This document shows positions 19,585-46,278 of a stretch of 64,000 nt of DNA, piece after piece. Numbering within the stretch: position 1 is the stretch's first letter; the number at the start of each line of letters is the position of its first letter. Under the pieces are notes generated by a model. It was not told where the DNA came from. It did not search any database and saw only the letters and a list, made by a program, of their open reading frames with translations. The position numbers were made by a program, and so were the translations under genes. The stretch comes from an uncultured Verrucomicrobiales bacterium (GTDB lineage: Bacteria > Verrucomicrobiota > Verrucomicrobiia > JADLBR01 > JAIBCM01), in NCBI GenBank assembly GCA_964435495.1, contig CAYSZK010000001.1, forward strand, positions 699 to 64,698, in the 5' to 3' direction.

Positions 19585-19595
19585 CGCGGCGGGGA

Positions 19596-24111: not shown

Positions 24112-24145
24112 TGTTGTGTCTCCTGAATGCGGTGAACCATCTAAG

Positions 24146-25783: not shown

Positions 25784-25870
25784 CCATCGGTCCAGACCGT
25801 CGTAGCTGATCTGGGTCGTGTTGGTGCCTCGGGTGATCTGGGTAAGCCGGTTCTTCGCGTCCCACTCATC

Positions 25871-26155: not shown

Positions 26156-26260
26156 GCCATTATTTCAAAAAGCCTTATTGCTCCTCAAGATTCATCAAAT
26201 CCCCTAGCGCACTTGACCGCGGGTCATCGCCCGAGCCTTCGATGTAGCCCCCGTTCCCAA

Positions 26261-27289: not shown

Positions 27290-27480
27290 ATCGTCAACTT
27301 TTTAGATCCAGCAGAAAGAGTTCCCATTTCTTCGCTTAAGTGCCAATGCCCGGATGGTCCCTCCTTGCCAATAATGCGTTCACAAATCTCGGCCAGAAAC
27401 CTCAATCCTGCTTCGTTAGCCACAATATCAACCTCGCTGGATTCCTCATCTAACGAGACATTAATCTCTATATTGCTCAT
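27229..27480 (-). CDS. putative Rhs immunity protein
   Basis: It is 83 aa, has an ATGA overlap with the orphan-1 stop and sits in a low-GC island. Confidence 0.5.
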   Translation of the reverse strand: MSNIEINVSLDEESSEVDIVANEAGLRFLAEICERIIGKEGPSGHWHLSEEMGTLSAGSKKLTICFTPSISGAAGALGDERRP

Positions 27481-29075
27481 TTCGGATGCCAATTGACCCC
27501 GTCTGGAGACCACTCCTGTTGACTCCCATCACGCAAATGCCCGCGATCCCAATGCGGCTGACCACCTCGTTTATCGTGAGGGCTCTTATCCCAGTGATAA
27601 TGCCAATCATCATCTCTCTGGTCCATTTTATTGTTTGGATCAAAGCTACTGCCTCCACCTGAATCTGATGGACAGATGTCATTTGAATCCCGAAATGACT
27701 CATGAAACAAGGGTCCAAGAGAACCAAGCACCGCTGCTGCGGCAGCGAGTTTTGTCCGCAAGTCCGGCGGCCTTGGCGTCGGACTGTCCGGGGTCGGAGC
27801 ATCCGCGTTGTCGGGTTCGACAAGGAGCAGCGTCGCCACAACCGCCGCGATCACCAGCGGATTGTCCCCTTTCGGGTCAGTGTAGTTCACCGGGTTATTG
27901 GCAAGGGCGCCGTAGATGTTTATCCCTCCCCGCTCGCCAATGGCGTCCCGCCGGAGCCACCTTCCCAGAACCGCGCTGTAGGGCCTGCCGAGTTTCGGAA
28001 ACTGCAGTTCTGACAGGCCATGCGCATACATCCCCTGAAACAAGAATTCCGCGTCCCTATCCCCTGACGTCTTCGTCACCCGGCCCCAGGGATCGTAGCT
28101 GTAGCTGGCTCGGACTGCGCCACTGTTGTCCACAAGTTCCCGCACCGAGCCAAGATGATCCCGCGTGTAAAACAGCTTCTCGCCGCCGACGCCCTCGGCC
28201 CCCTGGGGAAAGAAGCGCTTCACCACCGCGCCGCTCTGGTCCCGTTCCTCGCACAGATCCAGCCCGCACCAGACGAACCGCTTGACCGAGTTCGTTGTGG
28301 TTCCGGCTTTCTCTAGGATCTGCACCCAGCGGTCCAACCCATCGTAGCTGATCTGGGTCGTGTTGGTGCCGCGCGCGATCTGGGTGAGCCGGTTCTTGGC
28401 GTCCCAGGAGAGGATGCGGTCACAGACCGCATCTACAGTCAGGTTCCCATCCGCGTCATAGGTGAGGGTTTGCGAGGCGCTGTTGGTCCCGATAACGATC
28501 TTGTAGTGGTTCGTCGCGGTGTTGGTGTTGCCGTCGGTGGCGGTGATCGTGAGCAGGTTCTCACCGGGCACCAGGTTGTTGAGCAGCGCGGAAAAACTGC
28601 TTCCTTCCGTCTGTCGCGCCTTGTTGGTCACCGCCCCACCGCCCAAGCGGTAGCGCACTGTGGCCGGTTCATTGACCGTGCCCGACATCCATGTGGCCGT
28701 GCCCGCGGCCACGTTGGTCACCTGGTTGAGGCCGTTGTGCTTCGCAGCGCGCAGCGTTGTGCCCGCTTTCTCCCAGAGCCGGTTGTCCGCCTTGTCGTAG
28801 CCGTAGCCGTAATCGGTCTCCGGCGTCCAGTTGCCCCCGCCGCTGTCCCGCCACACGGGCGCGGCGACGAGCTGGTTCACCTCGTCATACACCGCCCGCA
28901 TTTCCCGCGCCGGGTCCACCCCCCGAATCTGCCCCCATTGCGTGATTTGGTCCAGCGCATCGTACTCGCAGATGAAGGTGCTCAAGTGCGTTGCGCCCAC
29001 GCAGTTGGTGATGCCCCGGAGCCCACGGTCCCCCATGGCGTCCCAGTAACCGAAGGCCGCGCTTTGGCCGCACAA
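27477..29075 (-). CDS. orphan rhs C-terminal cassette 1 (YD repeats, Rhs core end, unique His/Trp/Asp-rich tip)
   Basis: The 532 aa are nearly identical to the main Rhs over ~460 aa. They diverge after the HESFRD motif into a lower-GC tip (…DDDWHYHWDKSPHDKRGG…). Confidence 0.75.
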   Translation of the reverse strand: MCGQSAAFGYWDAMGDRGLRGITNCVGATHLSTFICEYDALDQITQWGQIRGVDPAREMRAVYDEVNQLVAAPVWRDSGGGNWTPETDYGYGYDKADNRLWEKAGTTLRAAKHNGLNQVTNVAAGTATWMSGTVNEPATVRYRLGGGAVTNKARQTEGSSFSALLNNLVPGENLLTITATDGNTNTATNHYKIVIGTNSASQTLTYDADGNLTVDAVCDRILSWDAKNRLTQIARGTNTTQISYDGLDRWVQILEKAGTTTNSVKRFVWCGLDLCEERDQSGAVVKRFFPQGAEGVGGEKLFYTRDHLGSVRELVDNSGAVRASYSYDPWGRVTKTSGDRDAEFLFQGMYAHGLSELQFPKLGRPYSAVLGRWLRRDAIGERGGINIYGALANNPVNYTDPKGDNPLVIAAVVATLLLVEPDNADAPTPDSPTPRPPDLRTKLAAAAAVLGSLGPLFHESFRDSNDICPSDSGGGSSFDPNNKMDQRDDDWHYHWDKSPHDKRGGQPHWDRGHLRDGSQQEWSPDGVNWHPK

Positions 29076-29113
29076 CGCCCTCTGGTAAGCTCATATGAAT
29101 GTCATGACCGGCT

Positions 29114-29467
29114 CTAAGCCACATAAATGCGCCCGTCCAAGTGAACTTGAAACGATTCAAAGTCCCTCGAACTATTGAAAACATCTAGTGAGTAACTATT
29201 CTCAAACATCAATATCATTCCACCTTCCTCGGTGCGCGTCGCGTGCTCACACGAAAGCCCAACTAGCTGACAAATCGCCGACGCATGTATTGTGTAGTCG
29301 CTGAATTCCGATCGGAGTGTGATGCCATGCTTAAGCAGGCATGCCCCCTCAATGGACACCCTGCTGTCTTCAAAATTCAAAATGCATTGGTGTTCACTAA
29401 TGCAGACTTGAAGCACCTTCTTGCCAATAAGGGGACTTAGATCGATCTCAACAGGCAATCCATTCAT
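29114..29467 (-). CDS. putative cognate immunity protein of the full-length Rhs
   Basis: A ~117-aa ORF lies in an AT-rich island 4 nt downstream of the rhs stop. Confidence 0.5.
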   Translation of the reverse strand: MNGLPVEIDLSPLIGKKVLQVCISEHQCILNFEDSRVSIEGACLLKHGITLRSEFSDYTIHASAICQLVGLSCEHATRTEEGGMILMFENSYSLDVFNSSRDFESFQVHLDGRIYVA

Positions 29468-29471
29468 AAGG

Positions 29472-32400
29472 CTACCTAGGGGGAAGGGGAACATGCGTCT
29501 GGGCCTGAAACTCAGGCCTGCTCACGTTGGAAGGAGGCTTTCCAGTAGCGGGATTTACTGGCTGGCCATTCTGATTGTATTGCCTCCAATATCCGTTTGG
29601 ATACTGCTCAGTTGGCGACATTTCTCGAATGGTATGTCCAGGTGGAAGCTCGTCTGGCGTGGGAGGTTCTTGTGGAGAATTAGTCGGCTCCTTGAAATAT
29701 GGACTAGGCTTTGGAGATGCGGGGTTTACGGGACACGGCTCCCCGTCTCCAAAAGACTCATGAAACAATGGTCCAAGAAAACCAAGCACAGCCGCCGCGG
29801 CCGCCAGTTTTGTCCGCAAGTCCGGCGGCCTTGGCGTCGGACTGTCCGGGGTCGGAGCATCCGCGTTGTCGGGTTCAACAAGGAGCAGCGTCGCCACAAC
29901 CGCGGCAACAACCAGCGGGTTGTCCCCTTTCGGGTCAATGTAGTTCACCGGGTTGTCGGCAAGGGCTCCGTAGAGGTTGATGCCGCCCCGCTCGCCAATG
30001 GCGTCCCGCCGCAGCCACCTGCCGAGCAAGGGGCTGTAGGGCCTGCCGAGCTTCGGAAGTTGCAGCTCTGACGAGCCATGCTGATACATGCCCTGAAACA
30101 GGAAATCCGAATCCCGATCCCCTGCCGTCTTCGTAACACGCCCCCAGGGATCGTAGCTGTAGCTCGCACGAACTGCCCCATTCGTGTCCACGAGTTCCCG
30201 CACTGAGCCAAGATGATCTCGCGTGTAAAACAGCTTCTCGCCGCCGACGCCCTCGGCCCCCTGCGGAAAGAACCGTTTCACGACCGCGCCATTTCCATCC
30301 CGCTCCTCGCACAGTTCCAGCCCGCACCAGACAAACCGCTTCACCGCGTTGGTCACGGTCCCGGCCTTCTCCACAATCTGGACCCAGCGGTCCAGGCCGT
30401 CGTAGCTAATCTGGGTTGTGTTCGTGCCTCGCGTGATCTGCGTGAGCCGGTTCTTGGCGTCCCAGGAGAGGATGCGGTCATAGACCGCATCTACAGTCAT
30501 GTTCCCATCGGCGTCATAGGTGAAGGTTTGCGAAGCGCTGTTAGTGCCGATCACGATCGTGTAGCGGTTTGTTGCCGTGTTGGTATTTCCATCCTTGGCT
30601 GTGATCGTCAACGTGTTGCTGCCCACGACCAAATTGGTCAGCAACGCCGAAAAACTGGTTCCTTCCGTCTGTTGCGCTTGATTGGTCACCGCTCCTGTAC
30701 CGAGCCGGTATCGCACCGTCGCCGGTTCGTTCACCGTGCCGGACATCCATGTGGCCGTGCCCGCGGCCACGTTGGTCACCTGGTTGAGGCCGTTGTGCTT
30801 CGCAGCGCGCAGCGTTGTGCCCGCTTTTTCCCAGAGCCGGTTGTCCGCCTTGTCGTAGCCATAGCCGTAATCGGTCTCCGGCGCCCAGTTCCCCCCGCCG
30901 CTGTCCCGCCACACGGGCGCGGCGACGAGACGGTTCACCTCGTCAAAGACCGCCCGCATTTCCCGCGCCGGGTTCACCCCACGAATCTGCCCCCATTGCG
31001 TGATTTGGTCCAGCGCATCGTACTCGTAGGTGAAGGTGCTCAGGTGCGTGGTGCCCACGCTGTTGGTGATGCCCCGCAGCCGCCGATCCCCCATGACATC
31101 CCAGTAACCGAAGGCCGTGGTCTGGCCGTTGGGATAGGCGACGCCCGCCAGCAGCGGCGACACCGGGTTTTCGTAGGTGTAGGCGAAGTCGCCAAGGGCA
31201 TTGGCCGCGTTTGTGGCGCGCCCTTGGCTGTCAAACGCCCAAGCGGCCACCACGCCGTTGATGGCGCGGTTGGTCATGCGCCCCAGTCCGTCATAGCCGT
31301 AGGAGACAAGATCATTGGCCCATGGCCCGTCTTCGGCCACAAGCTGGCCGGCGTTATCGAAAGTGTAGGCGGTGGCGCCGATGCCGTCGGCCATGTTAGT
31401 GCGCCAGTTGCGCCGGTCATAGCCGAAACTCACCGGGGCCAGGCCTGTGCCGGTGATGTTGGTGAGGTTCCGAGCGGCGTCGTAACGGAATTCGTTGGTC
31501 TGGCCCCGGCTGTTGACCGCCGCCGCCAGCAACCCGCGCGGGTCATAGGCGTAGGCGATCCGGTTGCCGTCGCTCCACTCCCGGTTGGTGACGCGGTTGA
31601 GTGCGTCGTAGGCAAAGCGCGTGGCGTTGCCGTTGCCATCGCGCAGAACGGTGAGATTGTCGGCGGCGTCATACTGCATCTGAATCCAGCTTCCGTCGGG
31701 GCGGCCCTCGGCCACCATCCGTTTGTTGCCGTCGTAGGCGAACACCGTCTTGCGCCCAAGCCGGTCGGTCACCGAGGCCGGCACGCAGCATTCCCACTCG
31801 TACTCGTCGAAGGTCCCGTCAGGGCGGGTGGCGCGAATGAGCCGGTTGAGATTGTCGTAATCAAAAGACCGCGTTCTTCCCGCGGCGTCGGTGGAAGCCT
31901 GGACCCGTCCCACTGCGTCATAGGCCGCCGTGGCGACGGCCAGGCCCTGGTGGGTGACATTGGTTACGCGGAAGAGGTGGTCGCGTTGGAGGGCGGTGAC
32001 TTCGCCCAGCGCGTTGGTGACCGCCGCAGGCAGGCCGTTGGGCGCGTAGGCAACGCGGGTGGCGCGGTTGAGCGCGTCGGTGATCAAGACGGGCTGGCGC
32101 GCAGCGTTGTACTCGATCCGGGCGGCGCTGTTGCCCGCGCCGTCGATGATGTTGGTCACGTCCAGGCCGTTGGCGGCGTAGAACCAGCGGTTGGTGTTGT
32201 TGCGGGCATCGACGCGTTCGATGGGCATACCCTGGTCGTTGTAGGCCATCCGGACCATTACGTTGGCGGGGTCAATGATGCGGCGGGGATGGCCGTCGAG
32301 GTCGAAGTCCATGAACTGCCAGCGGGTGCCGTCGGCGCGCTTGATTTCCGACAAGAGCGCTTTGCCTTCGACGACCGAGTAGCGCAGTTCGGTCTTGGGC

Positions 32401-34721
32401 GCCTGTTTGGCAGGCAGCGGGGATTCCATCTGCCGGCCATCGCGAATCCAACTGAACCGGCTGTACCCATTGTAATAATACTCCATCCGGTTGTTCTCCG
32501 GGGTTGTCACGGTGATGCGGTAGTTCTCCCACATGGCGGCGCCGGTGGCGGGGTAGTAGTTGGCGGCGCGCACGCCGTCGGTGGGTTCGGTGAGAAAACC
32601 GGTGGCGCCCATCGGGGTGGTGACGCGGTCGAGGAAAAGATTCCCGTTATTGGTGGTGTAGCCATAGGAGTAGGCGACGCCGCCCATGTCGGTTTGGTTG
32701 GTGAGGTTGCCGGAGGCGCTGTAAAGGAACGTGGCCTGGCGTCCAAAGGGATCGGCAATCGCCTGGATTTTTCCCTGGGCGTTATACGACACCGTGAAAT
32801 CGCGGTTGAGGGCGTCGGTGACTTTGAGAATCTGGCCCGCGGCGTCGTGGGTGACGCGCACGGTGTTGGTGTGGGGGTCGCGGATTTCCAGCAGCAGCGG
32901 CGTGGCGCCGCCGCCGCCCATGGCCGCCGGGATGCCGTAGGCGTAGATCATGCCCTCGGGAGTCTGGACTTGATAGGCGCTGGCGGCGGTCTTGCGCAGC
33001 GTCCACGCCCCGTGTTCGATGGGCGGGAGATAGCCGCCGACGCCGTCGGGGGTGTAAACGTCGCGGCGCCCGTCGGGCATGATGACGGTGACCTTGCCGT
33101 CCGGCCCAACCAGGGCGTAGGACGCGTAGTTCAGCGTCCATTTGTTGCCGACGGGCCGGGCTTGGTTGAGGGCGTCCTGGCTGTTGTAGGTGAGGTCGAA
33201 GGAAACCGCGGGGCCGAGCCCGGAGTTGTGCCACAGAGGCGTGTCCAACACGCAAAGGTTGAGATTCGCCGGATTGATGTCCCAAACGGGGAGGCCGGAA
33301 CCGGCGGGCAACCCGCCGCCGCCAGACTCGTCACGTTCGCCCTGGCATCGGCGTTTGTCGGAGCCCAGATCGTCCTCAGGGCGGGGAATGCCACAGCAGC
33401 CGCCGAGGACCTCGGTTTCGGAAGGTGTCGCGGCGGGAAACGCCCGCGCGGCGCCGGGATCGAAGACCACTGCCAAGCCGCTCCATTGGGAATCAAACTG
33501 CTCGAGCGTGAGGGTGACGGTTTGCTTGAGGCGGGGGTCGTAGATCGTGAGGAGAGCCGGGGCGGCGCCCGATTTTTCCAGACCGCTGACGACGACGAAG
33601 TGGAGGTCGCGGTAGTGGGCGATGAAAGGGCGGGGGAGACTGGCGATGCCGCCGGCGTCGGCCTGGACGGCGGCGGTCTCAAGGCCGTGACTTTCGGCAA
33701 ACCGCTGGAGTTGGCCGATGGTAAAACCCTCGTCGCCGGGGGCAGGGAGGCGGCGGACCTCGCGCGCCTCGCGGATGCGCCCGCGCAATTCAAGCACACG
33801 GGCGACGGCTTCGGCGCCGCAATCGCGCAGCTCGGCGAGGTGGCCTTGGAAATGGTTCAACTGGCGAATCCAGTTCTGGGCGTAGGTGCGGCGTTCCCAC
33901 TCCGTCTCCACGGCCAGCATATCGGCAAAAGCGGCGCGTGAATTGGCTATTTCGCCCCGTTCCATCAGGAGGACCGCGCGGCGGAGCCTGGCTTTCTGGC
34001 GCATGGCAAAAGCCGAGTCCTGGGCCGTCTCCGGAATGGCGGAAAGGATGGCGTTGAAGTGGCCCTCGGCTTCGTCCCAGCGCCCCGTGAATTGCGCCTC
34101 GCAACCCAGGTGCAGCCGCGCCTCACCGGCCCACGGACTGTCCGGGAACTCGCGCAAGTGCGCATGGAAGACCGGAACGGCCTCCGCATACCGGTGCGCA
34201 TTCCACAGATTCATCGCGCGGGCGAAGTGAAGATTCACCCGCTCCATCCGCGCGCGCTGTCCGGCATCCTTCAGCCGTAGCGGCTCGGCGGGCGCGGTGG
34301 GCGTCAACGGGCTGCCCAATTGTCCGGCCATTCGGAGTTCGCGTTCGGTGGGCACGCGGTCGAGGCGCAAATCGAGCAGGCTGATTGCGCCTTCCACGCC
34401 GCCATAGAGGCTGGCGCGCTGGCCGCGGCGTTCAGGCGGGTCGCGGCGTTCGAGGTCGCGGATGCGTTCTAGGGTGAGAGGCGGCTCGATCCTGGCGGTT
34501 GGCGCCTGCGGGGCGGGCTTCGAGCAAGCGGCCAGGAGCACGAACGCCATCCAGTGGAGATGCGGTCTGTGACAGCGTCGGACGCATTCCCGGTTCTGGG
34601 ATGCGTGGCTGGCATGGTTCGGGCGGTTTGTGGCGGATCGTCGGACGGCATGGCACACTTCCATGGAGAACGACCGGATGCGGTCACAAGCCGAATCGAC
34701 AGAATAGGGAGTCGGGATCAT
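29472..34721 (-). CDS. rhs: Rhs-family polymorphic toxin (TPR region, C39-peptidase-like domain, YD/RHS repeats, RHS core, variable C-terminal tip)
   Basis: It has many YD repeats and an Rhs core end (YTRDHLGSV…YSYDPWGRV…[34 protein letters not shown]). A papain-like Cys…His region ([12 protein letters not shown]…[13 protein letters not shown]) lies in the N-terminus. The ATG at 34721 overlaps the upstream gene's stop (ATGA). Confidence 0.9.
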
Positions 34722-37700
34722 GGCAGGGACTCCGCGTTGGCGGGGGTTTGAAGCTGGATCACAGGGGCCGACACATCACCGGGCACGAAACCGGGCGGTG
34801 CAGAACGGGCAGGGTCGAGAGGGAATGCGTCGAGCGCGTCGTTCACGCCGTCACCGTCTGAATCCGTGCGGAATGGGCTTGTTCCTTTGGCGGCCTCCTG
34901 GCTCAGGCTCAAGCCGTCGCCGTCCGGGTCGCCGCTGGCGGGATGCAGGCCCGCGGCCCACGCGGCGCCATCGAGGAGCCCGTCTCCGTTGGTGTCGGGA
35001 TTCTGAAAATCGCTGGGGGGCGAGAGTGTAAGCTCGGCGAAGTCGGAGAGGCCATCGCCATCGGTATCGCCGCCTGAATAGACAGTGACGGAGACGGGCG
35101 TGGACACGGTGGAGACACCGCGGTCGTCGGTGGCGACGGCCTTCAGGATGGCCGCGCCGAGCGGCGCGTTGGTCCATTGAAGGGTGTAGGGTGACGAGAT
35201 ATCCTCGCCGATCTTATTCGTGCCGGAAAAGAACTCGACCTTGGCGACGTAACCGTCGGGGTCTGAAGCGGTGGCGGCCAGCCAGAGCGTTCCGGTCGCA
35301 TCGGTGGCGGCGGCGCCGGCGGCAGGAGAGGTGATGGCCACCGTGGGCGGATAACTGAAGACGTTGAACCCGGTGATGCGCGTTGGGGTTAAACGGTTGT
35401 CGCTGTCGCCCAGGCCGAGGCGTCCGCTTCCCCCGGAGCCCCACGCCCACACAAAACCCGCCCCGTCGATGGCGAGGCTGTGATGGGCGCCCGCGGCGAT
35501 GGCGATGGCGTTGCTGAGCCCCGGCGCGGCGGCCTGGCGCGGTGTTTCCACATCGCCGCCAGTCGTGCCGTCGCCCACCGCCCCATACTCCCGGCGTCCC
35601 CACGCCCAGACCGTGCCGTCGCTTTTCAAGGCGAGCATGTGATCATTGCCCGCGGCGATGGCGGTAGCGTTGGAGATGCCGGCGACAACTGTGGGATTGC
35701 CATCAAATCCGTTGGTGATTCTGCCGAGCTGCCTGTCGCTGTTCTCGCCCCATGTCAGCACCCGTCCATCCGAACGCAGCGCCGCGGCAAACTGGTAACC
35801 AGCGGCGATTTCGATCATTGTGCCGCTCCCCGACCATGAAGTCAGGGCGTCATATATGGCGGTCGTGTCGTTCTTGACCTGGCGCATGCTGTTGTCGCCG
35901 GTGGCGCGCGGGTTGGGCGTGGTGACGGTTTCGGCGATGATATGGCTGTTGCGGCGTCCGGCGGCCACGCGAAGCGTTCCAACCGCCGAGAATGTGATTA
36001 AGCGCGGCTGATTTGTCCATGTGGACGCTCCGGAGTCCCCTTTCCCCAACTGGCCCCGTTCGTTGCCGCCCCATGTGTACAGCCTTCCGTTGGTTGTGAC
36101 ACACATGGAATGGTCCTCCCCGGCCGAGACCGCGGCGGCGTTGGGATGATGTTGACGGTGACCGGGCTCTGCTTGTCCTCGTCGTCCCCGTTTCCCAAAC
36201 GGCCTTCAGCGCCGGCGCCCCAGGCCCGCAGCCGCCCGTCGTGGCGCACCGCCAGGCAGTGGAGGGAACCCGCCGCCACCGACCGGACCAGGGAAATCCC
36301 CGAAACCTGCGCGGGACGGTTCGTAGAGCCCGCGTCCGAACCGTTCCCCATCTGGCCGGAGGAGTCTGAACCCCAGGTCCACACCGTTCCATCGTACATC
36401 AGCGCGATGGAATGCTCGTCGCCGCCGTCGATGCCGACGGCTCCGGTCTTGTCGTCGTCGGAAATGGTGTTGGTTGCCGTGCCGGGAGAACCGATGTTGT
36501 AGCCGGAACTGGTGGAGATCGCCACGGCGACGGTTTCATTGGTTTCAACCACGGTGTCATCGAGTACGGAGACCTGAAGATTCGTGAAACTTGCTCCGGC
36601 CGGGATCACCACGGGCGAGCTGATCGCGCGATAGTCGCCGCCGTTGCTGGCGGAGCCGCCGATGGAAAAGTTGACCGCCAACGGCCCGAACGTGTTGCCG
36701 GTGCGGGCAAAGGTGAACACTCCGGAATTGAATCCAGGCTCCGACGCCGATGGATCGGAGGCGGCCACCGTCACCGTGGGTTTGTTGCCGCTGGACTGCG
36801 CGAAAGCCTCAAAAATCACCGCCTGTCCGACCGCCTGGGTGCTCATCGCCAGGTCCACGGCCTGGGCGTAGATCGTTTGCAGCGCCCCGGTGGGGCACAT
36901 CTTGAGAAACACGGAAGCCTCGCCGTTGGCGGCCGTGCGGACCGTTCTGGAGGCCAGTTGCGAGCCGCTGCCCTTGTTCGTGGCGAACAACCCGCCAACG
37001 GGCGAGATCGAGAACGTAACCGGCGCGTTGGTGAGAACATTGCCCACGGCGTCGCGCACCAGCACCACGAGTGGATTGGCCGCGAAAGCGCCGGTGTTCG
37101 TGGTTTGGCGGTCTCCGCTGGCCAGCGACAGCAACGGGGCCTGGCCATTGAAAAAGTCGTTCGGCAGCGTGCCCGCTTGGAACTCCGCCAGGTTTGAGGC
37201 GCCGTCGCCATCGTAATCGCCGGCGGCCGGCTGGTTCGTGCCGCCAAGCCATTCGTATTCCCATGCGTCGTCCATGCCGTCGGCATCGGCATCGCCGCCC
37301 ACGATCGTCACGGAGACCGGAGTGGTGTTGGTGGTCGCGCCGCCGTTGTCGGTGGCGCGGGCGGTGAGGACATGGGCGCCGAAGCCGGCATTGGTCCACT
37401 CCACCGCGTACGGGGCGAGGCCGTCCTCGCCCAGCTTGTTGGTCCCCGCAAAAAACTCGACCTTTGCAACCGTCCCATCCGTGTCGGCGGCGGACGCGCG
37501 CAGCCAGACGCTGGCGGAATTTAGGACCACCGCGCCATCCATCGGGGCGTTCCAGGCCACCGATGGCGGGATGTTGCCGTCAATGAGCCCATGGCCCGCC
37601 ACGGCGGAAAAGGATGCCGCCTGTTCGGAAATGGGATCATCCCCAGCTCCAAACAACCCCGCAAGCGCCGTTTCGGGCAGAGCCACGTTCATCACGCCGC

Positions 37701-38223
37701 GCGGCGACCAGTTTGTGCCGTCGGTGGAGGTGAAAGCCGCCACCGCCTTGCCGCCGCGGTCCAGGCGCAGCCAAAGGGGCGGGTTGGCCAGGGTCCAGTT
37801 GGTCAATTGCCAATCCGCGCCATCGGCAGTGCGCCACGCCATGGACCACGCGGCGATTTGGGAGGGGAGCGCCGCGGACACCAGGAAAAGGGAAGCGTAG
37901 GCGGCATCGGGCGTGTTCGTGGCGCGGATCATGAGGCCGGCGTTGGCCAGCCGGCCAGGCGAAGCGTTGGAAACCTGGACCAAAGCCGAAATGCTGCCCG
38001 TGGTTCCCATGGGCGCGTGGCGGAAGAGAATCGCGTCGGCGCCGGGACCCAGTTCCGTGTTTCTGGCGGCGATCGCAGCCTCGTTGGAAGAAACGGTGAA
38101 CGTTCCCGACTCGCCCTGCAAAGCGGGAACGGGGGTGATAACCGAATTGGTCCAGGTCTGCGCGTGCGCCACGGCGGCGGCGAGCGCGGCGGCGGGCAGG
38201 AGCGGGCGCAAGAACGGCTTCAT
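34718..38223 (-). CDS. secreted multidomain protein: signal peptide, Ig-like/thrombospondin-type-3 Ca-binding segments, Calx-beta, RCC1 beta-propeller repeats; apparent frameshift at ~36143-36146
   Basis: [21 protein letters not shown] is a signal peptide. A Calx-beta-like block is present (FTFARTGNT…[14 protein letters not shown]). RCC1 repeats (…HS/HCLAL…DGxVWxWGxxxxGQLG) continue seamlessly from the 1121-aa ORF frame into the 462-aa ORF frame at an atcatccc|aacgcc C-run. Confidence 0.7.
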
Positions 38224-40684
38224 TGCGCGAGCACCCGGTAAAGGTTGGCGGAGTCCGCGGCCAAGCCGTTGGTTTGGACAACCGTCTCGGGGGCGCCGGC
38301 GCCGGTGACGGCTGCGATGGGCCGGTAGGTCTTGCCGTCGGTGGAGTGTTCGACGACGTAATCCACGCCAACTTGGGCGTCGAAGGTGATGGCAATGCCC
38401 TGGGGCGCACCCTCCAACTGGACAACAGGCGGCGCGGCGGGCGCGGCGTTGGTGAGCACGTTGCACCACGCGGCCATGGACCAGCGCGAGAGCCAATTGC
38501 CGTCGCGGAAGGCGCCGGCGTGGGCCGCGGGGGCGAACCAGCCGTTCCACGGGGCGGCCAGCGCGATGGAGCGCGCGCCCGCGCCGGCGGCGAGGAGCGG
38601 ATTCAGGGCGCGTTCGTTGAGCCGCGCGATGCGGCGCAGGCCGGGGTTTTCCGCAAATACGTTGCCGTTGCTGCCCGCGCCGAGGATCGGGGCCACTACC
38701 GCGTCGTTGGCGCCGCCGTTGACGCTGGCGGCGTCGCACGCGCCCGTGGCGCCGATGCTCCACCAGTGGACGCCCTGGAAGGAAAGATCGGGGCCCGGCG
38801 CGGCGGCGCTGTCGGCGGCCAGGTTGAATTCGCCCCCGGAACTGCGCGTGGCCGCCAGGCGCGCCTCCTGCAGCGCGTTGGTCCCGATCCAGAGGCCGGG
38901 ACCGGCGGTGTCCATGACGATGCTGTTGCGCAGCCGCCCGCCGGAGTTGTGGCGGAAGCGCAGGCCGTTGCCCGGCGCCGTGTTGCCCGAGTCCGTGCCG
39001 CGCCCGATGAGCGTGGCGTTGTAGATGAGCGGGACCGAATACGGACCCGCGGGATTCATGTCGTCGGGTTCGGGGCCCTGCCCGTCGAGGAGGGCGTCGC
39101 CGGCTTCGGCGACCGGGTCGCGGCCAGTGCCGTCGCTGGCATTGTCCTGGATGGCGAACCATTGCTGGCCCAAGCCATGCCAGCCTTCGTCCCAAGCGAA
39201 GGCGTCCTGTCCGGCGAACCACGCCGCCGCCCGCGCCAGCCGCGCCGAGCCGCCGCGCAGCTCGAAGCCGTTGCCCGCGGCGTTCCAGACCTCCACCAGT
39301 TCCACCACCGTGTTGCTGCCCACTCCCGCCAGCGCCAATCCCGCCAGCCGGTGCGCGCCCCACGCGCGCGCACCCGCGTAGCGGATCGACACGAACCGCA
39401 TCACCCCGCTATCGCTGCCTTCGTCAGTGCCCCCGTAGAGGCCCTTTGCGGAGCCCTCCAAGCCGCGGAGATAGTCGCAGCCGGTTCCGGTGTCGATTGC
39501 GCCGGGGTTATCGATGAATTGCGCCCCTGTGGCGTTGCCCTGGGCGACGGGCGCCTCGCCCAGCAGAACCACTCCGCCCCAGAGGCCGGAGTGCTCGAAA
39601 GCATTGGGCTGGCCGGGATCGGCGGTCTGGTATTGGCGGCGGTTGGCGGGGTCGGTCAAATCCCGGCTGCCCGCTCCGGCAAGCGGGTTTTCCCATGGCG
39701 GAATGGTGTTATCCCCGCACGGAAGCAGCGGGTCGTCGATGGAGGTAAAGATGATGGGGGATTGGGCGGTGCCGTTGGCCACCAGCTTGGCGCCGCGGCA
39801 GACGATTAGCGCTCCGGCGTCGGAGGGCGACTGCCCGGAAATGCCGGTGGTGGTGGGGCCTTCGGCGCGGACGATGGTGCCGGGTTCAACAATAAGAACC
39901 GCTCCGGCGCGCACGTAAATGGGGCGGTCGAGCACATAGATATTGTTGGCGGTGAAGCGCGTGTCATTGGTGATGTCGGCAACGATCTTGAGGTAACTGC
40001 GGCTGTTCCACTGCTGGGGGCGCCCGCGTTGTACGCCGCCTCGTCAAACTCGGGCGCTCCCTCCATGCCCATGAGCGCCATCATGCCGCCCTCCGGCGGC
40101 GGGGGATCGGCGAGAAGCTCCGCGCGATGGGCGTCGAAGTAGCCATGGACCCAGTCCAGGAAAGCCGCGTCCTCCGGACGGAGGGGCTTGTCATGTTTGG
40201 CAAGCACGGGAAATTCACCCGGCCGCGGCCCGCGCCACTGGGAGGCCTCCTGCCCCTTGCCTGAAGCGGCGGCCAATTCGTTCTTGAGCGCCATTTCGGA
40301 AGGCAAAGCCTCCCATTTCCGGTAGTTCTCCCAATCCCCGCAAAACCGCAAACACCACGCGCCATAACCGGCCTTGGGGTCTTCCCAGTCACGATGGTTT
40401 CGGATGGCGTCAAAAGGGATTGAGGAGATGACGCGCGCCCAGCCGCTTCCCGTCCATATTTGGATCACGGACAGGCCATTGCCGAAGCACTCCACCCAGA
40501 GCACTTGGCGGACGATCGGCGTCTGAGTCTTGGCGGGTCCGGCTTCAAGAGCGATGGGCTCAGCGGATGCCGTTTCGACGCCGTGGGAGAAGAGGCAGAA
40601 TATGCCGCAAACCGCAAATGCGGCGAACGAAACGCGGGCGGCGACCAGCACCCGCTGGAAAAAGTCCCCAGACCCCAGTCTCAT
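38220..40684 (-). CDS. secreted right-handed beta-helix (pectate-lyase-fold-like) protein; apparent frameshift at ~40016-40021
   Basis: The signal peptide and N-domain are in ORF 39806..40684. The body is in ORF 38220..39935, whose frame is open back to ~40000. The join is at a gcgccccc|agcag C-run. The stop overlaps the downstream start (ATGA). Confidence 0.6.
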
Positions 40685-40756: not shown

Positions 40757-41758
40757 TCACGCGGTTCCCGTTAGGAACCAGGTTGCCATGGGGCCTTTGC
40801 CCTTGATCTCGATTTCGCCCCGGGGCTCGAACGTGAAGGCGCCGCCCAAGCGTTCCTTGACGGCGGCGCTCACATGGATTTTGCCGGGTTCGCCGTGGGA
40901 TTCCAAGCGGCTGGCGGTGTTTACGGTGTCACCCCAGATGTCGTAGATGAATTTGCGCTTGCCGATGACGCCGGCGACGACGGCGCCGGCGTGAAGGCCG
41001 ATGCGCAACTGGAGCGCTTGGCGCCCGCTGTCGGCGACCGCGGCCCGCATCTCCAGGGCGAGCCGGGCCATGGCGGCAAGGTTGTCCGGACGCGGATCGG
41101 GCAGGCCCCCGGCCACCATGTAGGCGTCGCCGATCGTCTTGATTTTCTCCAGGCCGTGTTTTTCGACGAGGTTGTCGAAGGCGGAGAACACGCGGTTGAG
41201 CATTTCGACGAGGCTGATGGCGTCGAGCTTCGCGGAGAGCGGCGTGAAATTGACGATGTCGGCGAACAGCACGGAGGCGTCTTCGAAACGTTCCGCGATG
41301 ATTCCGCCGCCGCGCTTGAGGCGGTCGGCGATGGGGGCGGGGAGGACGTTGAGGAGGAGGCGGGTGTTTTCCCGGTTGAGGCGGTCGAGGGCGAGATGGG
41401 TGTTGACGCGGGCTAGCAGCTCGTGGGCGTTGAACGGCTTGGCGACGTAATCCACGGCGCCCAGTTCGAAGCCTTTGACGATGTCGGCGGTCTCGGTCCT
41501 GGCGGTGAGGAAGATGACGGGGATGTCCCGCCAGCCGGGATGTTCCTTGAGGCGGCGGCAGGTTTCGAAGCCGTCCATTTCCGGCATCATCACGTCGAGA
41601 AGGATCAGGTCGGGGACCTGCCGGGCGAGGGCGTCGAGGGCGATCCTGCCGTTGGTGGCCACGCTGATCTGGTAGCCTTGCTCCTTGAGAATGGCGGTGA
41701 CCGCCTGGATGTTGGCCGGGGTGTCCTCGACCAGCAGGATGCGTCCTTCTTTGTTCAT
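40757..41758 (-). CDS. response regulator receiver fused to class III adenylate/guanylate cyclase domain
   Basis: ILLVEDT…DLILLDVMMPEMDG is a REC domain. FADIVNFT…GDAYMVAGG…YDIWGDTVNTASR is a CYC domain. The start overlaps the HK stop (ATGA). Confidence 0.85.
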   Translation of the reverse strand: MNKEGRILLVEDTPANIQAVTAILKEQGYQISVATNGRIALDALARQVPDLILLDVMMPEMDGFETCRRLKEHPGWRDIPVIFLTARTETADIVKGFELGAVDYVAKPFNAHELLARVNTHLALDRLNRENTRLLLNVLPAPIADRLKRGGGIIAERFEDASVLFADIVNFTPLSAKLDAISLVEMLNRVFSAFDNLVEKHGLEKIKTIGDAYMVAGGLPDPRPDNLAAMARLALEMRAAVADSGRQALQLRIGLHAGAVVAGVIGKRKFIYDIWGDTVNTASRLESHGEPGKIHVSAAVKERLGGAFTFEPRGEIEIKGKGPMATWFLTGTA

Positions 41759-44700
41759 GAAATTCCGTCCGTGGCGGAGGGGCATGCCTCGTCGAGCCGG
41801 CCCAGGGCGCCGTGGAAGTCGTAACCGCGCACGGCGGCGGCAACGGCATCGAACGCCGGGGCGGGCATGGCGGCGCGCAGGAGCGCCTCCGATTCGTCGA
41901 GCCAGTCCACCGAGGCCGCGTCGAAATCGGCGAGGCGGCGGCGAAGCTCGATGGCCGCGGCGCGGGCCTGGGCGGGGTCCACGGTGGCGGTTTCGGCGGG
42001 CGCGGGCATGGCGGGCGCGGCGGGCGCCGGTTCTTCGGGGAGACGCAAGAAAGCGCGCACTGCGGGGAGCAGGGCGTCGAGCGCGGCGGCGGTGGCGGCG
42101 TGAAGGCTCTGGATTTCGGCGGCCGGGGCTCGGGAACGGAGGGCGGCTTCGAGTTGGGCGGCGGCGGCATGCAAGGCTTTTGCGCCGAGATTGCCGGCGA
42201 CTCCCTTGAGGGCGTGCGTGGCGGCCTCGGCGGCGGGGAGGTCGCCGGAGGCGATGCTGGTCCCGATGCGGGCGGCGGTCCCGGCATTGTTCTCCGCGAA
42301 CTGGCGGAGCAACTTGTCGTAGAGCCTGGCGTTGCCGGCGACGCGCATGAGGCCGTCGGCGGTATCGAGGGTGGGGAGGGCTGGGGGCGGCGCGGGTTCA
42401 ACGGGGGAGGCCGGGGGGGCCGGAGGGGCGGGGAGTGGGGCGGTGTGGGTTGGGCGGAAATGCTTGGTGATGGTGGCGAACATCTGGACGGGGTCGATCG
42501 GCTTGGCGATGTGGTCGTTCATGCCGGCATCAATGCAGCGTTGCCGTTCCTCGTGCGTGGCGTGGGCGGTCATGGCGAGGATCGGCAGAGCCGCGAACTG
42601 GGGATCGGAGCGGATGAGCATGGTGGCCTGGTATCCGTCCATTTCGGGCATTTGCAGGTCCATGAGAACCAGATCGAACGCCGCGGGCGCGGCGGCGAGT
42701 TTTTCGACGGCATCGCGCCCGTTGTGGGCGAGGGAGACGGTGGCGCCGGCGCTTTCGAGGAGTTCCGTGGCGACCTGCTGGTTGATTTCGTTGTCTTCGG
42801 TGAGGAGGACGCGGGCGCCATCGATCCGGGCGGTGGCGTCGCGGGGCGCGGCCTGCGCGGCGGCGCCGGAGTCGGGTGCGAAGACGTTGACGAGCGTATC
42901 GACGAGCATGGACTTGGTGACGGGCTTGACGAGGAATCCGTCCACGCTCTCGGCCTCAGCCTCCTCGCGGACTTCCTCCCGGCCGAAGGCGGTGACGATG
43001 ACGAAGGCGGGCGGGTTGGGGATGGCGGGATCGTTCTTGATTTGGCGGATGGCCTGGATGCCGTCCATGCCGGGCATGCGCCAGTCCATGAAGACGATGT
43101 CGTAGGGGCTGGCGGCGGCGTGCTGGCGGACGGCGGCGATGGCTTCGAGGCCGGAGGCGACGGCATCGACGGCGGCGGCCATGGGGGCGAGGGCGTCGGC
43201 GAGGATTTCCCTGGCGGCGGCGTTGTCATCGACGACGAGGGCGCGGAAGGCGCGGAGGCCATCGGGGACGAGGCGCTGGGAGGAGCGTCCGGCGCCGATG
43301 CCGAGCCAGACGGTGAAATGGAACTGGCTGCCTTTGCCGGGCTGGCTTTCGAGCCAGATTTGGCCGCCCATGAGTTCGACGAGCCTGCGGCAGATGGTGA
43401 GGCCGAGGCCGGTGCCTCCGTGCTTGCGGGTGGTGGACATGTCGGCCTGGCTGAAAGGCTGGAACAGGCGGGCGGCTTGTTCCGGGGTCATGCCGATGCC
43501 CGTGTCGCGGACGGTGAACTGGAGTTTGGCCTTGTCGCCGGTGCGCTCGGCGACTTGGGCGGTGACCCGGACTTCGCCGGTTTCGGTGAACTTGACGGCA
43601 TTGGTGATGAGATTGGTGAGGATTTGGCCGAGGCGCAGGGGATCGCCGACCAGGTCCTGGGGGACATCGGCGGGGATATCGACTAGGAATTCGAGGCCTT
43701 TGTCGTGGGCCTTGCCGCCGGTGATGTTGACGGTGGAGGTGATGACATCGTCGAGGCGGAAGGTAGTGGATTCGATTTCGAGGCGGCCGGCCTCGACCTT
43801 GGAGAAATCGAGGATGTCGTTGATGATGGAAAGCAGGGAGGTGCCGGCGTTGTGGATTTTGGCGAGGTAATCGCGTTGTTTGGGTGTGAGGGCGGTTTTG
43901 AGGGCGAGGTGGGCGAGGCCGATGATGGCGTTCATCGGGGTGCGTATCTCGTGGCTCATGTTGGCGAGGAACATGGACTTCATCTGGGTGGCTTCCTCGG
44001 CCCTGGCCTTGGCCTCGATCATGGCCTCCTCCTGCCGGCGGCGCAGGGTGATGTCGGTGAAGCTGACGACCGCCCCCACGACGGCGCCGTCCTTGCGGAT
44101 CGGTGTGGCGCCGTATTCGACGGGAAGGGGCGAGCCGTCCTTGCGCCAGAGGCATTCGTCGTCCACAACGCGGGCCTCGCCGCGGGTGTAGGCGGCGTGC
44201 ATCGGGCATTCCTCGACCGGGTAGTCCGAGCCGTCGGGCCGGTGGTGGTGGATGAGGGCGTGGGACGGCTGGCCGATGAGATCGGCGGTGTCGAAGCCGA
44301 GCATTTTGCAGGCGGCCGGGTTGACGAAGGTGACGCAGCCTTTGACATCAACGCCGAAAATGCCCTCCGACGCCGACTGGAGGATCAGGCGGTTGCTTTC
44401 CTCGGCGGCGCGCAGCTCGGCGTTGCGGGCGGCGAACCGGAGGGCGTTGGCGACGGCCTCGGCGGCCTTGTCCAACCATTTGGATTGGATTTCCGAGAGC
44501 GGCTTGAAGAGGGCGAATTCGGCGGCGCCGACGAGATCGTCATCGGCGAGGAGGGGTTGGGCGACGATCTCGGCGGGGGCGACTTCGCCAAACCCGAAAT
44601 GGACGCGCAACGAGGAGGCGTCGGGGCCATGGACCAGGCGCTGGCGGGAGCGGGCGGCCTCGCCCACGGTGCCGACTCCGGGGGGATAGGCATGGCCCGC

Positions 44701-46278
44701 CGCGGCGTCCGGGTAGGCGTGGGCGGCGAGGCGGTGGAGGTTGCCGTCATCGGCGAGGGTGAAGATGGCGCCGGCCGGGGCTTCGAGGAACCGGATCATG
44801 ACGCCGAGGGCGCGCTGGGCGAGATCGGCGGTGGACAGGCAGCCGCGGAGGCTGGAGTTGAGCTCGGAGAGGCTGGATTCAAGGGCGGCCTGCTGGCGGG
44901 CTTGGCAGGCCTGGGTTTCCAGGGCGTCCTCGGCGGCCTGGCGGCGTTCGGCCATGAGATTGATGGCGTCGGAGAGGGAATCCTCGCTGCCGCGGCGGGG
45001 CACGCGGCGGCTGAAATCGCCTCCGGCGATGGAGGCGCAGACCGAGGCAACGTGGCGGTAGGAATCGACGACGCGGTTGAAGCTGCGGAACATCGCGCCG
45101 ATCTCGTCTTTCATTCGTCCGGGATCGGGGAGGTCCTGGCCGAGATTGCCGGAGGCGACGCGATCGGCGGCGTGCAGGGCGAGGCCGATGCGGCGGGAGG
45201 CGGAGGAGGAGAAGGCCCATGCGAGCGCGAGCGCGAGGCCGAGGGCGGAAAAGGCGATGGTCGAGGCCAGGAAGCCATGGCGCTTGATGGGGCCGAGGAC
45301 GGCGGCCTCCGGGAACTTGACGAGGACCATCCATTCCCCCGTGGGAACGGGGGCGGAGGCGAAGTAGCAGGGTTGTCCATCCACGGGATCAACGGCGGCG
45401 GTAAACCGCGCTTCCTGGCGGTTGGCGTGGAAGGCGGAGGCGATCTCCTTGTAAGGGGTGTCCTTGATCTCCTTGGTCCGGTAATGCACGGCAAGCGTGG
45501 AGGCGATGAACCGTCCCCGGCTGCTGATGAGGATGACGCCGACGCCGGTGTCTTTCTGGATGGACAGGAGGGATTCGGCGATGTCTTCGAGGGCGCGGTC
45601 CACTCCGGCGACGCCCGCGAAACGCCCGTCGCGGACGATGGGAAAGGTTTGTTCGACAATCATTTTGCCCTCGTACACGTAGGGCTCCGTCACCATGGGA
45701 ACGGGTTTGCCCTCGGCCAGGAAGCGGTCTTTGCAGCCCTGATAGTACAGGCTTTTTTCCATGTCGATCAGGGGGGTGAGCGAGATGGCGCCCGCCGCCT
45801 TGTTGTCGCGGAACCAGTAGGGGATGAACCGGCCTTCGGGACCAAAGGCGTTGCCGAGGGCGGCGGCATCGGGCGTGCCGGCGTAGGCGGCGTCCTGGCC
45901 GTCGGCGCCGGGTTCGTAGCCGAAATAGGCGCCTGTGAATTCGGGCGATTCTTCGAGAATCCGGCGGGCGTAGCGGAGGGAGGCGCCGCGGTTGCCGAAA
46001 AGGCCCTCCTCCTGAGCGAGGGCCATGATGCGGGCGGTTTGGACGGCCCGCTGGTTGCTTTCATCGATTTGGACGGCGATGGTTCGGGCGCGGGCGCGGA
46101 GGAGGTCCTCGGCCTGGGCGCGCATGGCTTTCTGGGTGCGCGAGGAAAGGAAGAGCAGGACGGCGGTGAGGACGGCCATGGCGGGGAGCATGACCCAGAG
46201 CATGAGGCGCCCACGCAGGCTGTGGCGGAAGGCGACGCGGGTGGGCGCGGTTGCGGGGGTTGGAGTTTGATCCGCCAT
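41755..46278 (-). CDS. hybrid sensor histidine kinase (periplasmic sensor, HAMP, GAF/PAS, HisKA-HATPase, two REC, HPt)
   Basis: An N-terminal TM helix and a Cache-like region are followed by HEIRTPMN (H-box), N/G boxes, two DxxxD…D…K receiver blocks and a C-terminal HPt (HALKG). Confidence 0.9.
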   Translation of the reverse strand: MADQTPTPATAPTRVAFRHSLRGRLMLWVMLPAMAVLTAVLLFLSSRTQKAMRAQAEDLLRARARTIAVQIDESNQRAVQTARIMALAQEEGLFGNRGASLRYARRILEESPEFTGAYFGYEPGADGQDAAYAGTPDAAALGNAFGPEGRFIPYWFRDNKAAGAISLTPLIDMEKSLYYQGCKDRFLAEGKPVPMVTEPYVYEGKMIVEQTFPIVRDGRFAGVAGVDRALEDIAESLLSIQKDTGVGVILISSRGRFIASTLAVHYRTKEIKDTPYKEIASAFHANRQEARFTAAVDPVDGQPCYFASAPVPTGEWMVLVKFPEAAVLGPIKRHGFLASTIAFSALGLALALAWAFSSSASRRIGLALHAADRVASGNLGQDLPDPGRMKDEIGAMFRSFNRVVDSYRHVASVCASIAGGDFSRRVPRRGSEDSLSDAINLMAERRQAAEDALETQACQARQQAALESSLSELNSSLRGCLSTADLAQRALGVMIRFLEAPAGAIFTLADDGNLHRLAAHAYPDAAAGHAYPPGVGTVGEAARSRQRLVHGPDASSLRVHFGFGEVAPAEIVAQPLLADDDLVGAAEFALFKPLSEIQSKWLDKAAEAVANALRFAARNAELRAAEESNRLILQSASEGIFGVDVKGCVTFVNPAACKMLGFDTADLIGQPSHALIHHHRPDGSDYPVEECPMHAAYTRGEARVVDDECLWRKDGSPLPVEYGATPIRKDGAVVGAVVSFTDITLRRRQEEAMIEAKARAEEATQMKSMFLANMSHEIRTPMNAIIGLAHLALKTALTPKQRDYLAKIHNAGTSLLSIINDILDFSKVEAGRLEIESTTFRLDDVITSTVNITGGKAHDKGLEFLVDIPADVPQDLVGDPLRLGQILTNLITNAVKFTETGEVRVTAQVAERTGDKAKLQFTVRDTGIGMTPEQAARLFQPFSQADMSTTRKHGGTGLGLTICRRLVELMGGQIWLESQPGKGSQFHFTVWLGIGAGRSSQRLVPDGLRAFRALVVDDNAAAREILADALAPMAAAVDAVASGLEAIAAVRQHAAASPYDIVFMDWRMPGMDGIQAIRQIKNDPAIPNPPAFVIVTAFGREEVREEAEAESVDGFLVKPVTKSMLVDTLVNVFAPDSGAAAQAAPRDATARIDGARVLLTEDNEINQQVATELLESAGATVSLAHNGRDAVEKLAAAPAAFDLVLMDLQMPEMDGYQATMLIRSDPQFAALPILAMTAHATHEERQRCIDAGMNDHIAKPIDPVQMFATITKHFRPTHTAPLPAPPAPPASPVEPAPPPALPTLDTADGLMRVAGNARLYDKLLRQFAENNAGTAARIGTSIASGDLPAAEAATHALKGVAGNLGAKALHAAAAQLEAALRSRAPAAEIQSLHAATAAALDALLPAVRAFLRLPEEPAPAAPAMPAPAETATVDPAQARAAAIELRRRLADFDAASVDWLDESEALLRAAMPAPAFDAVAAAVRGYDFHGALGRLDEACPSATDGIS

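Follow-up and report, generated by a model that had tools for sequence, protein, structure and literature searches.

Here, we describe an Rhs toxin locus in a 64,000-nucleotide window (the whole stretch of DNA that was analyzed) from an uncultured Verrucomicrobiales bacterium, with attention to the interval 34718-40684, where two genes, referred to as gene A and gene B, lie directly ahead of the Rhs gene. All three are on the minus strand in head-to-tail order. Gene A (38220-40684) and gene B (34718-38223) are both interrupted and have restored products of 821 and 1168 aa, respectively, while the Rhs toxin gene (29472-34721; 1749 aa) is intact. Read on the minus strand, the stop codon of gene A overlaps the start of gene B at 38220-38223 (GCG CAA TGA / ATG AAG), and the stop codon of gene B overlaps the first ATG of the Rhs gene at 34718-34721 (CTG CCA TGA / ATG ATC), so that both 4-base ATGA overlaps in a preliminary description of this DNA were correct. 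The same description proposed a three-gene operon; the order, strand, and overlaps of this arrangement hold, but neither gene A nor gene B is a single open reading frame (ORF). A working three-gene operon is therefore doubtful in this genome, because both accessory genes are frameshifted. The overlap between gene B and Rhs recurs in locus L143 only, with the same CTG CCA TGA, and a spacer of 10-60 bp is found at the other loci. The exact start of the Rhs gene is uncertain. A GGAG sits 8 nt upstream of the first ATG (34721), the other candidates are the ATG at 34664 (M20) and M58, and the Rhs proteins of relatives start ~20-40 residues ahead of the hydrophobic segment. Scans for promoters (1 found, 1.7 expected) and terminators (16 found, 12.5 expected) were at chance and are uninformative on operon structure.

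The gene B product has a modular architecture that begins with a Sec-type signal peptide, with the predicted cleavage site before QT, and continues with a weakly matched DUF1349/ConA-like domain, a Big_7 domain, a weak Big_1 domain, a Calx-beta domain, an RCC1 propeller, a second Big_7 domain, TSP3-type repeats, and a conserved C-terminal tail. Signal peptides and N-terminal anchors were judged by eye. In the Pfam scan, the propeller is matched by WD40_RLD with 244.9 bits (cut-off 150) and by RCC1 in six stretches, and these matches, together with Calx-beta, the two Big_7 domains, and weak Big_1, DUF1349, and TSP3, confirm the RCC1-propeller/Calx-beta/immunoglobulin (Ig) assignment made in the preliminary description. 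Orthologues of gene B with 45-51% identity are present in loci L003, L088, L141, and L143.

To compare gene neighborhoods, the N terminus of Rhs (aa 1-520) was used as query, which gave 9 close homologues and, after a metagenome scan, 55 loci encoding a tetratricopeptide repeat (TPR) region and a C39 peptidase, with or without the Rhs part (TPR-C39(-Rhs) loci). The neighbors at these 55 loci were searched by tBLASTn with pieces of gene A, gene B, and Rhs. Homologues whose N-terminal region is at least 41% identical form a near clade and those at 29-36% a distant clade, and lineages were counted after dereplication at 90% identity. In the near clade, a large modular gene on the same strand, with its stop codon 10-60 bp before the Rhs start, is present in 14/14 dereplicated lineages with readable upstream DNA; in L084, L141, and L143, the partner is likewise directly upstream of Rhs. 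The search from the other side, starting with gene B, led to the same place. Its closest orthologues, P0085 in L141 and P0086 in L143, each precede a TPR-C39-Rhs gene, and gene A is not nearby. Gene B is a conserved Rhs partner in the Rhs clade of the window, and the co-occurrence of gene B-type genes with rhs, on which the preliminary description had staked its partner idea, is kept throughout the near clade. The binding modules of the partners vary and include one to four RCC1 propellers, Big_7, Calx-beta, CHB_HEX_C, and Fn3_assoc. The partner in L107 carries LamG, NIDO, Big_7, and TSP3 with the tail and is without RCC1. In P0176 (L144, 605-6043), a single 1812-aa chain contains DUF6531, RHS repeats, and then an RCC1 propeller after the shell. 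Moreover, in L145, on a 455-kb contig (7098-8424 and 10001-21542), a cassette of partner, Rhs, and small gene immediately follows genes for a phage-type integrase and an HTH_17 excisionase-like protein, which suggests that a partner-Rhs cassette is able to ride on an integrative element.

What the partners have in common is their end. A tail of ~16-20 residues with the motif P[VI]Ix[IL]xxP, encoded at 34718-34780 (minus strand) in the window and aligned across 17 partners, is common to all of them. It usually follows the TSP3 repeats and is kept even where CHB_HEX_C stands in place of TSP3. Examples are PPVITITYPTTGITQL, GPIITITYPTTGIRQL, and APILIITNPSQGVTPL. In sequence, the tail is similar to strand A, the first strand of a Big_7 domain, and such a stretch also occurs inside gene B. 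Six further proteins carry it. In a blind test with two RCC1 proteins on long contigs, chosen by the tail alone, P0089 proved to be followed by a 1764-aa Rhs gene 24 bp downstream and P0129 by a 1458-aa Rhs gene 62 bp downstream, the latter with orphan fragments. RCC1/Ig proteins without the tail occur apart from Rhs (P0088, P0096, P0118, and P0135); for P0096, which served as the tail-less control, the contig ends 118 bp past the gene.

The gene downstream of gene B encodes, as had been described, a bona fide Rhs protein; it has RHS repeats, a core domain, and a variable tip. An exact look-up of its sequence returned no entry. The hydrophobic N terminus contains a lipobox-like LAAC in the window and appears as a transmembrane-like helix in relatives. 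It is followed on the minus strand by a CpoB/YbgF- and BamD-like TPR region (aa ~150-297; 33831-34274), a Peptidase_C39 domain (aa 298-423; 33453-33830), a GGCCG motif (aa 440-444; 33390-33404), DUF6531 (aa 505-555; 33057-33209), and the RHS repeats (PF05593, E 1.2e-59, six stretches; TIGR01643, 142.7 bits). The repeat-associated core (aa 1523-1599; 29925-30155; TIGR03696, 56 bits with a cut-off of 32.5) marks the end of the shell and precedes a 150-aa tip. The Pfam scan of Rhs returned TPR, Peptidase_C39, DUF6531, and RHS only, with no PAAR/prePAAR or VgrG-type N terminus. Likewise, no match to PAAR, VgrG, Hcp, DUF1795/EagR, or DUF4123 was found in Rhs or in the ~35 ORFs scanned in the window, which bears out the absence of type VI secretion system (T6SS) genes reported in the preliminary description.

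The C39 domain (PF03412, 59.4 bits with a cut-off of 22) has the features of a double-glycine peptidase. The profile of the Rhs N terminus matches the ComA peptidase domain with an E value of 1.8e-15, in which the catalytic Cys, His, and Asp pair with the Rhs segments RDCG, HFVV, and YDP. The corresponding residues Cys301, His374, and Asp395 are invariant in the alignment of close homologues (A2) and are kept in 47/48, 48/48, and 46/48 loci, respectively. An AlphaFold2 model covers residues 115-442 with confidence, and Foldseek matches it best to the double-glycine protease LahT with leader peptide (6mpz); PCAT1 was also matched. The C39 domain is not fused to ABC_membrane or ABC_tran domains in Rhs or its neighbors, and the single ABC match in the Rhs homologue search is a distant outlier (P0084). 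The GGCCG motif, with predicted cleavage between GG and CCG, lies ~15-20 residues past the C39 domain and is found in both the near and the distant clades. An exhaustive hidden Markov model (HMM) search over 1.84 billion representatives (protein clusters at 50% identity; E ≤ 1e-30) returned 225 that match the TPR-C39 N-terminal HMM of Rhs, most of them 1400-2000 aa long, and G[GA]CCG is present in 57/74 full-length representatives. Upstream of the GG, Leu is found at -12 in 64%, Ser at -11 in 40%, and Glu or Asp at -8 in 62%, and hydrophobic residues are found at -7 in 58%, -4 in 54%, and -3 in 69%. The classical double-glycine leader consensus of bacteriocins and ComC is LSxxELxxIxGG. By this comparison of residues, the segment between C39 and CCG reproduces the double-glycine leader pattern (L-12, S-11, E-8, L/M-7, I/V-4, and GG). 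The succession of a hydrophobic anchor, TPR, a C39 domain with its triad, and then a double-glycine site suggests that Rhs is exported by Sec and released by its own protease. Two further arrangements of this N terminus were observed. In L124 (3314-8653), a distant-clade TPR-C39-Rhs has an N-terminal glycoside-hydrolase TIM-barrel (GH2_C/GH72-like) ahead of C39. In L085/L100 (1844-1905) and L084 (11557-11569), the TPR-C39 and Rhs parts were called as two genes; the L085 split seems to be an in-frame interruption, one tBLASTn high-scoring pair spanning it, and that in L084 is a frame change on a contig tagged '5x'.

At the other end of the protein, the C-terminal toxin region (aa 1600-1749; 29475-29924, minus strand) has two hydrophobic stretches, a GHTIRE segment, and the C terminus QTHVPLPPR. 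It has no Pfam match even at E ≤ 10, and its THVP ending recalls the 'THIP' motif of Ntox30 (PMC3482391). A small ORF of 126 aa with DUF6188 (29114-29494, minus strand), which overlaps the Rhs stop by 23 nt, is the candidate immunity gene. Downstream lie three orphan Rhs C-terminal fragments on the same strand (27477-29075, 26261-27289, and 24926-25783), each with an Rhs_assc_core domain and a different tip, and the stretch 24000-30000 that contains them has a GC content of 0.57-0.59 compared with 0.65-0.70 elsewhere. Such fragments typify a displaced-toxin array.

Gene A encodes an N-terminal hydrophobic signal or anchor, an ~155-aa domain (A_N), a right-handed beta-helix, and a small C-terminal domain. 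The beta-helix call made earlier was right, as precomputed Pfam assignments place PF28492 Beta_helix_4 on P0001, the window ORF itself, and on each of the 73 homologues. All but one of these homologues align to the beta-helix part only. The homologues in named genomes, found in a scan of genome contigs that did not return the window's own genome, are 29-35% identical and come from Opitutales, Rhodothermales, Bacteroidota, Latescibacterota, and other groups, and Beta_helix_4 homologues often carry a type IX secretion system (T9SS) sorting domain. There is no Rhs or gene-B-like neighbor within 10 kb at the 80 best gene A loci in species-representative genomes, and the beta-helix of gene A is found at 0/55 TPR-C39-Rhs loci. 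The expectation of conserved co-occurrence with rhs is therefore not borne out for gene A, whose beta-helix family occurs without Rhs nearby. Apart from the window, only L003 shows the order A then B; it has an intact gene A, the ATGA overlap, and a gene B orthologue with 45% identity, and its contig stops before any third gene. The N-terminal domain behaves differently from the beta-helix. Residues 60-214 of A, which have no Pfam match at E ≤ 10, match residues 199-344 of the L088 gene B (27% identity, E 1e-13), and the A_N domain is also found inside the gene B orthologues of L141 and L143 (E ~1e-11). Two layouts can thus be distinguished. In the window and L003, gene A consists of A_N plus the beta-helix and is followed by a gene B with a DUF1349-like N terminus, whereas in L088, L141, and L143, gene A is missing and A_N is within gene B. 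As sister lineages carry A_N fused in gene B, it is the A_N domain, not the beta-helix, that is tied to the cassette. Gene A may accordingly be a lineage-specific addition of which only the N-terminal domain would belong to the system.

In the preliminary description, genes A and B were taken as complete genes, which is not borne out. Their spans of 2465 nt (40684-38220) and 3506 nt (38223-34718) are not divisible by 3, and the ORF list holds them as four pieces: 39806-40684 and 38220-39935 (frame open from 40043) for gene A, and 35998-38223 (741 aa) and 34718-36106 for gene B. Three-frame translation locates one frame change per gene. In gene A, a C5 run at 40016-40020 (minus strand) is one base short (GCC CCC [C]AG CAG TGG), and in gene B, a CCC run at 36143-36145 (minus strand) within an RCC1 blade is one base short (ATC ATC CC[C] AAC GCC), which severs the RCC1 blade array in this genome. 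Adding one C to each run restores products of 821 and 1168 aa that contain no further stops. The restored gene A product is colinear with the intact 803-aa orthologue P0002 (50% identity over 775 aa, spanning the lesion), and residues 212-1168 of the restored gene B product are colinear with the L088 gene B (50% over 962 aa). Both lesions are present in the Logan assemblies SRR10095373 (100% identical over 11,215 bp) and SRR10095374 (four single-nucleotide polymorphisms (SNPs), no gaps). Both come from replicate shotgun metagenomes (Illumina NextSeq) of Liard River Hot Springs sediment at 19 °C (PMC8027834, Supplementary Data 2). Since both replicate short-read runs carry the frameshifts, an error of sequencing or assembly, including a long-read error, was ruled out. 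The four SNPs between the two assemblies are clustered within 28 bp (39195-39222), all at synonymous third positions in the gene A frame, and may represent a short recombination tract. With a single real deletion in each gene, A and B are probably inactive or produced as fragments only in this genome. Rhs itself is intact, as are the candidate immunity gene and the orphan array.

Upstream of gene A, a response-regulator/nucleotide cyclase gene (40757-41785) ends 72 bp ahead of it and is preceded by a hybrid histidine kinase gene (41755-46278), both on the minus strand; these two genes (40757-46278) may belong to one transcription unit with gene A. Elsewhere in the window, a separate BamD/YbgF-like TPR protein is encoded on the plus strand at 9455-10681, and the TPR region of Rhs weakly resembles the same families. 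Adjoining genes of the PSD (DUF1592/1588/1587/1585/1595) and DUF1552 (HXXSHH) families lie on the minus strand at 17089-21089, and this DUF1592/DUF1552 pair, typical of Planctomycetes and Verrucomicrobia, fits an origin in the Planctomycetes-Verrucomicrobia-Chlamydiae group, as the preliminary description supposed, and is the sole taxonomic hint that the window offers. The sole match of an Rfam scan is a tRNA at 6710-6780. Two long plus-strand ORFs run antisense to the locus, one of 1242 aa opposite Rhs (30213-33941) and one of 528 aa opposite gene A (38223-39809); they are the usual stop-poor artefacts of ~67% GC DNA and not genes.

Taken together, we consider it probable that the interval holds the two accessory genes of a Sec-dependent, T6SS-independent Rhs cassette, whose partner acts with Rhs. 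In the mechanism we propose, Rhs would be exported via Sec and held by its N-terminal pro-region, and C39 would then cut after the GG and free the Rhs cocoon, consisting of the DUF6531 plug, the shell, and the C-terminal toxin. The partner would serve as a surface-display or target-binding subunit for the released or displayed Rhs, docking by its conserved tail on a part common to Rhs proteins and not on TPR-C39 specifically. The preliminary description had named both genes as candidate delivery or adhesion partners of Rhs. Gene B stands as the conserved upstream neighbor, gene A is not a general partner, and a delivery or adhesion role of the partner is putative.

Several observations weigh against this interpretation. 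Both accessory genes are frameshifted in the genome at hand, no route across the outer membrane was identified in the locus, and the 64 kb of visible genome leave room for a T6SS elsewhere. The distant TPR-C39-Rhs clade shows no tail-bearing partner in its 10 informative lineages, where the Rhs neighbors include PDH E1, GH114, and an fn3 protein. Conversely, tail-bearing partners pair with the Rhs of L147, which is without the TPR-C39 module, and with that of L145, which has only a divergent C39 and is without GGCCG. Partner and C39 module can thus occur apart from each other, and the tail accompanies Rhs proteins in general. For the same reason, an earlier idea of ours, that the TPR region of Rhs binds the partner tail, was downgraded. 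With respect to the protease, Gln is not conserved at the position aligned with the oxyanion Gln (six residues before the Cys; Q11 in ComA), which is Glu or variable in the family and Leu in the window, and the window's own segment ahead of CCG, PSETEVLGG, is degenerate and fits the leader consensus poorly.

The state of genes A and B in this strain admits two explanations. It is rather likely that the cassette is decaying here, genes A and B being recent pseudogenes and the operon a relic in which only the Rhs/immunity part perhaps still works. The single-base deletions, one per gene and reproduced in both metagenomes, favor decay, as do the severed propeller of gene B, whose downstream fragment is without a signal peptide, and the gene callers, which split both genes and left the N-terminal part of gene A uncalled. 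However, the remaining frames are open and 45-51% identical to intact orthologues, so that with only one lesion per gene any inactivation must be recent. The four SNPs between the samples are synonymous in the gene A frame, which speaks against decay, but as a cluster they may stem from a single recombination event. Decay is compatible with a Sec-dependent partner-Rhs cassette, our preferred reading for the family; the two diverge for this strain only. Alternatively, the frameshifts could be bypassed by a -1 slip of tRNA-Pro on C_CCN, or the C runs could be phase-variable, with A and B produced in small or controlled amounts. The same -1 correction would mend both sites, and at each an overlapping CCC is available for re-pairing of a P-site tRNA-Pro. 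However, neither site has an X XXY YYZ heptamer, relatives encode both proteins in one frame, and a shared pattern is expected by chance, since indels most often arise by homopolymer contraction. As for phase variation, the two runs, at 3 and 5 C, are short for such a switch, and both samples have the same run lengths at each site. We regard bypass and phase variation as improbable.

The link between the accessory genes and Rhs can also be questioned. Gene A, and possibly gene B, could simply be a secreted protein for adhesion or glycan binding, located by chance beside an Rhs island with no functional tie to it. The wide distribution of Beta_helix_4, with 0/80 named loci having an Rhs or gene-B-like neighbor, agrees with this, and so do the lack of gene A at all 55 Rhs loci and the tail-less RCC1/Ig proteins found apart from Rhs. 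For gene B, however, the synteny in 14/14 lineages, the blind test, and the tail common to the partners contradict such independence. In the case of gene A, two findings argue against it: L003 keeps the ATGA coupling to B, and three loci have A_N fused into their gene B orthologues. On balance, we hold an unlinked gene A or B to be possible but doubtful. The least probable of the explanations we considered is that Rhs is an effector of a T6SS or another contractile system whose apparatus is encoded elsewhere in the genome. Most characterized Gram-negative Rhs toxins are T6SS cargo, and only 64 kb of this genome can be seen. However, besides the absence of T6SS components and adaptors from Rhs and from the scanned ORFs, the hydrophobic anchor and the periplasm-type TPR and C39 domains would place Rhs outside the cytoplasm and do not fit loading onto a cytoplasmic T6SS spike.

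Returning to the Sec-dependent cassette with a partner, its interest lies in the fact that the exit of Rhs proteins and the way they reach their targets without a T6SS, type VII secretion system (T7SS), or Tc apparatus are poorly understood. A partner with variable binding modules and an invariant tail is a handle for finding such systems and for testing docking. At least ~225 protein clusters at 50% identity contain the TPR, C39, and double-glycine device, which predicts the exact bond, between GG and CCG. If the prediction is true, double-glycine C39 proteases extend from the export of small peptides to the processing in cis of an ~190 kDa protein. These most interesting parts, the partner tail and the C39/double-glycine module, are at the edge of or outside the interval 34718-40684. 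A broader proposal, which is tentative and which we would not yet expect to hold, is that tail-bearing surface proteins and signal-peptide Rhs proteins form a widespread two-component T6SS-free delivery system. The partner would be the receptor-binding or translocation subunit, docking by its C-terminal strand and perhaps completing an Ig-like fold; one large branch would use C39 for release, and the whole would be an analogue of Tc toxins built from unrelated parts.

WapA of Bacillus subtilis is a studied example of a Sec-dependent Rhs protein. Signal-peptide Rhs polymorphic toxins (Sec/type II secretion system (T2SS) class) with built-in releasing peptidases are a recognized class (PMC3482391, Table 1). 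The window's Rhs shares with them the RHS repeats, the core, and the variable toxin, together with a small candidate immunity gene downstream and an array of orphan toxins, and its N terminus has a putative signal instead of PAAR or two-partner secretion (TPS) domains. It differs in having an N-terminal C39 domain and a conserved upstream partner gene. In PMC3482391, C39 is given only as a C-terminal toxin domain (Tox-PL-C39) and not as an N-terminal releasing peptidase of the Sec class, and Table 1 has '-' under signature neighborhood genes for the Sec/T2SS class. The Rhs effectors of T6SSs (PAAR-Rhs, VgrG, and EagR chaperone) likewise have the shell, the core, a polymorphic toxin with immunity, and orphan modules; however, PAAR/prePAAR, the chaperone, and VgrG are missing here, and the N terminus is instead a putative membrane anchor followed by TPR and C39. 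The C39 domains of ComA, LahT, and PCAT1 have the same fold, the catalytic Cys, His, and Asp, and a cleavage consensus adjoining the domain. In contrast to them, the domain in Rhs has no ABC membrane or ATPase fusion and no ABC exporter in the locus, its oxyanion Gln is not conserved, and its predicted site is in cis, ~15-20 residues past the peptidase, and not on a separate small peptide.

Tc (ABC) toxins, the closest analogy in function, also combine an Rhs cocoon that encloses the toxin with a separate large binding or delivery protein, and a beta-propeller is associated with their cocoon, TcB being annotated as RCC1-like (PMC4140846; bioRxiv 10.1101/2023.11.21.568195). However, here the propeller is on the partner and not on the cocoon chain, the partner is without a predicted pore-forming channel, and no SpvB, TcdB-mid, or TcA-type domains were found by Pfam in gene A, gene B, or Rhs, so the resemblance to Tc toxins would be one of functional analogy only. 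The eukaryotic YD-shell proteins, the teneurins, similarly join a YD/Rhs shell with a beta-propeller and Ig-like domains at the cell surface, and the single chain in L144 may be compared with them. In teneurins, an NHL propeller is part of a single chain with a role in adhesion and signaling, whereas here an RCC1-type propeller is encoded by a separate gene and the Rhs protein has a polymorphic toxin tip. Our literature search found no description of an N-terminal TPR-C39/double-glycine module in Rhs proteins or of a conserved tail-bearing partner. An undescribed T6SS-independent Rhs system, as the preliminary description had it, is an overstatement, given the known signal-peptide class (PMC3482391); Sec-dependent Rhs toxins are familiar, and what we found no account of is the partner gene with its conserved tail and the N-terminal TPR-C39/double-glycine module.

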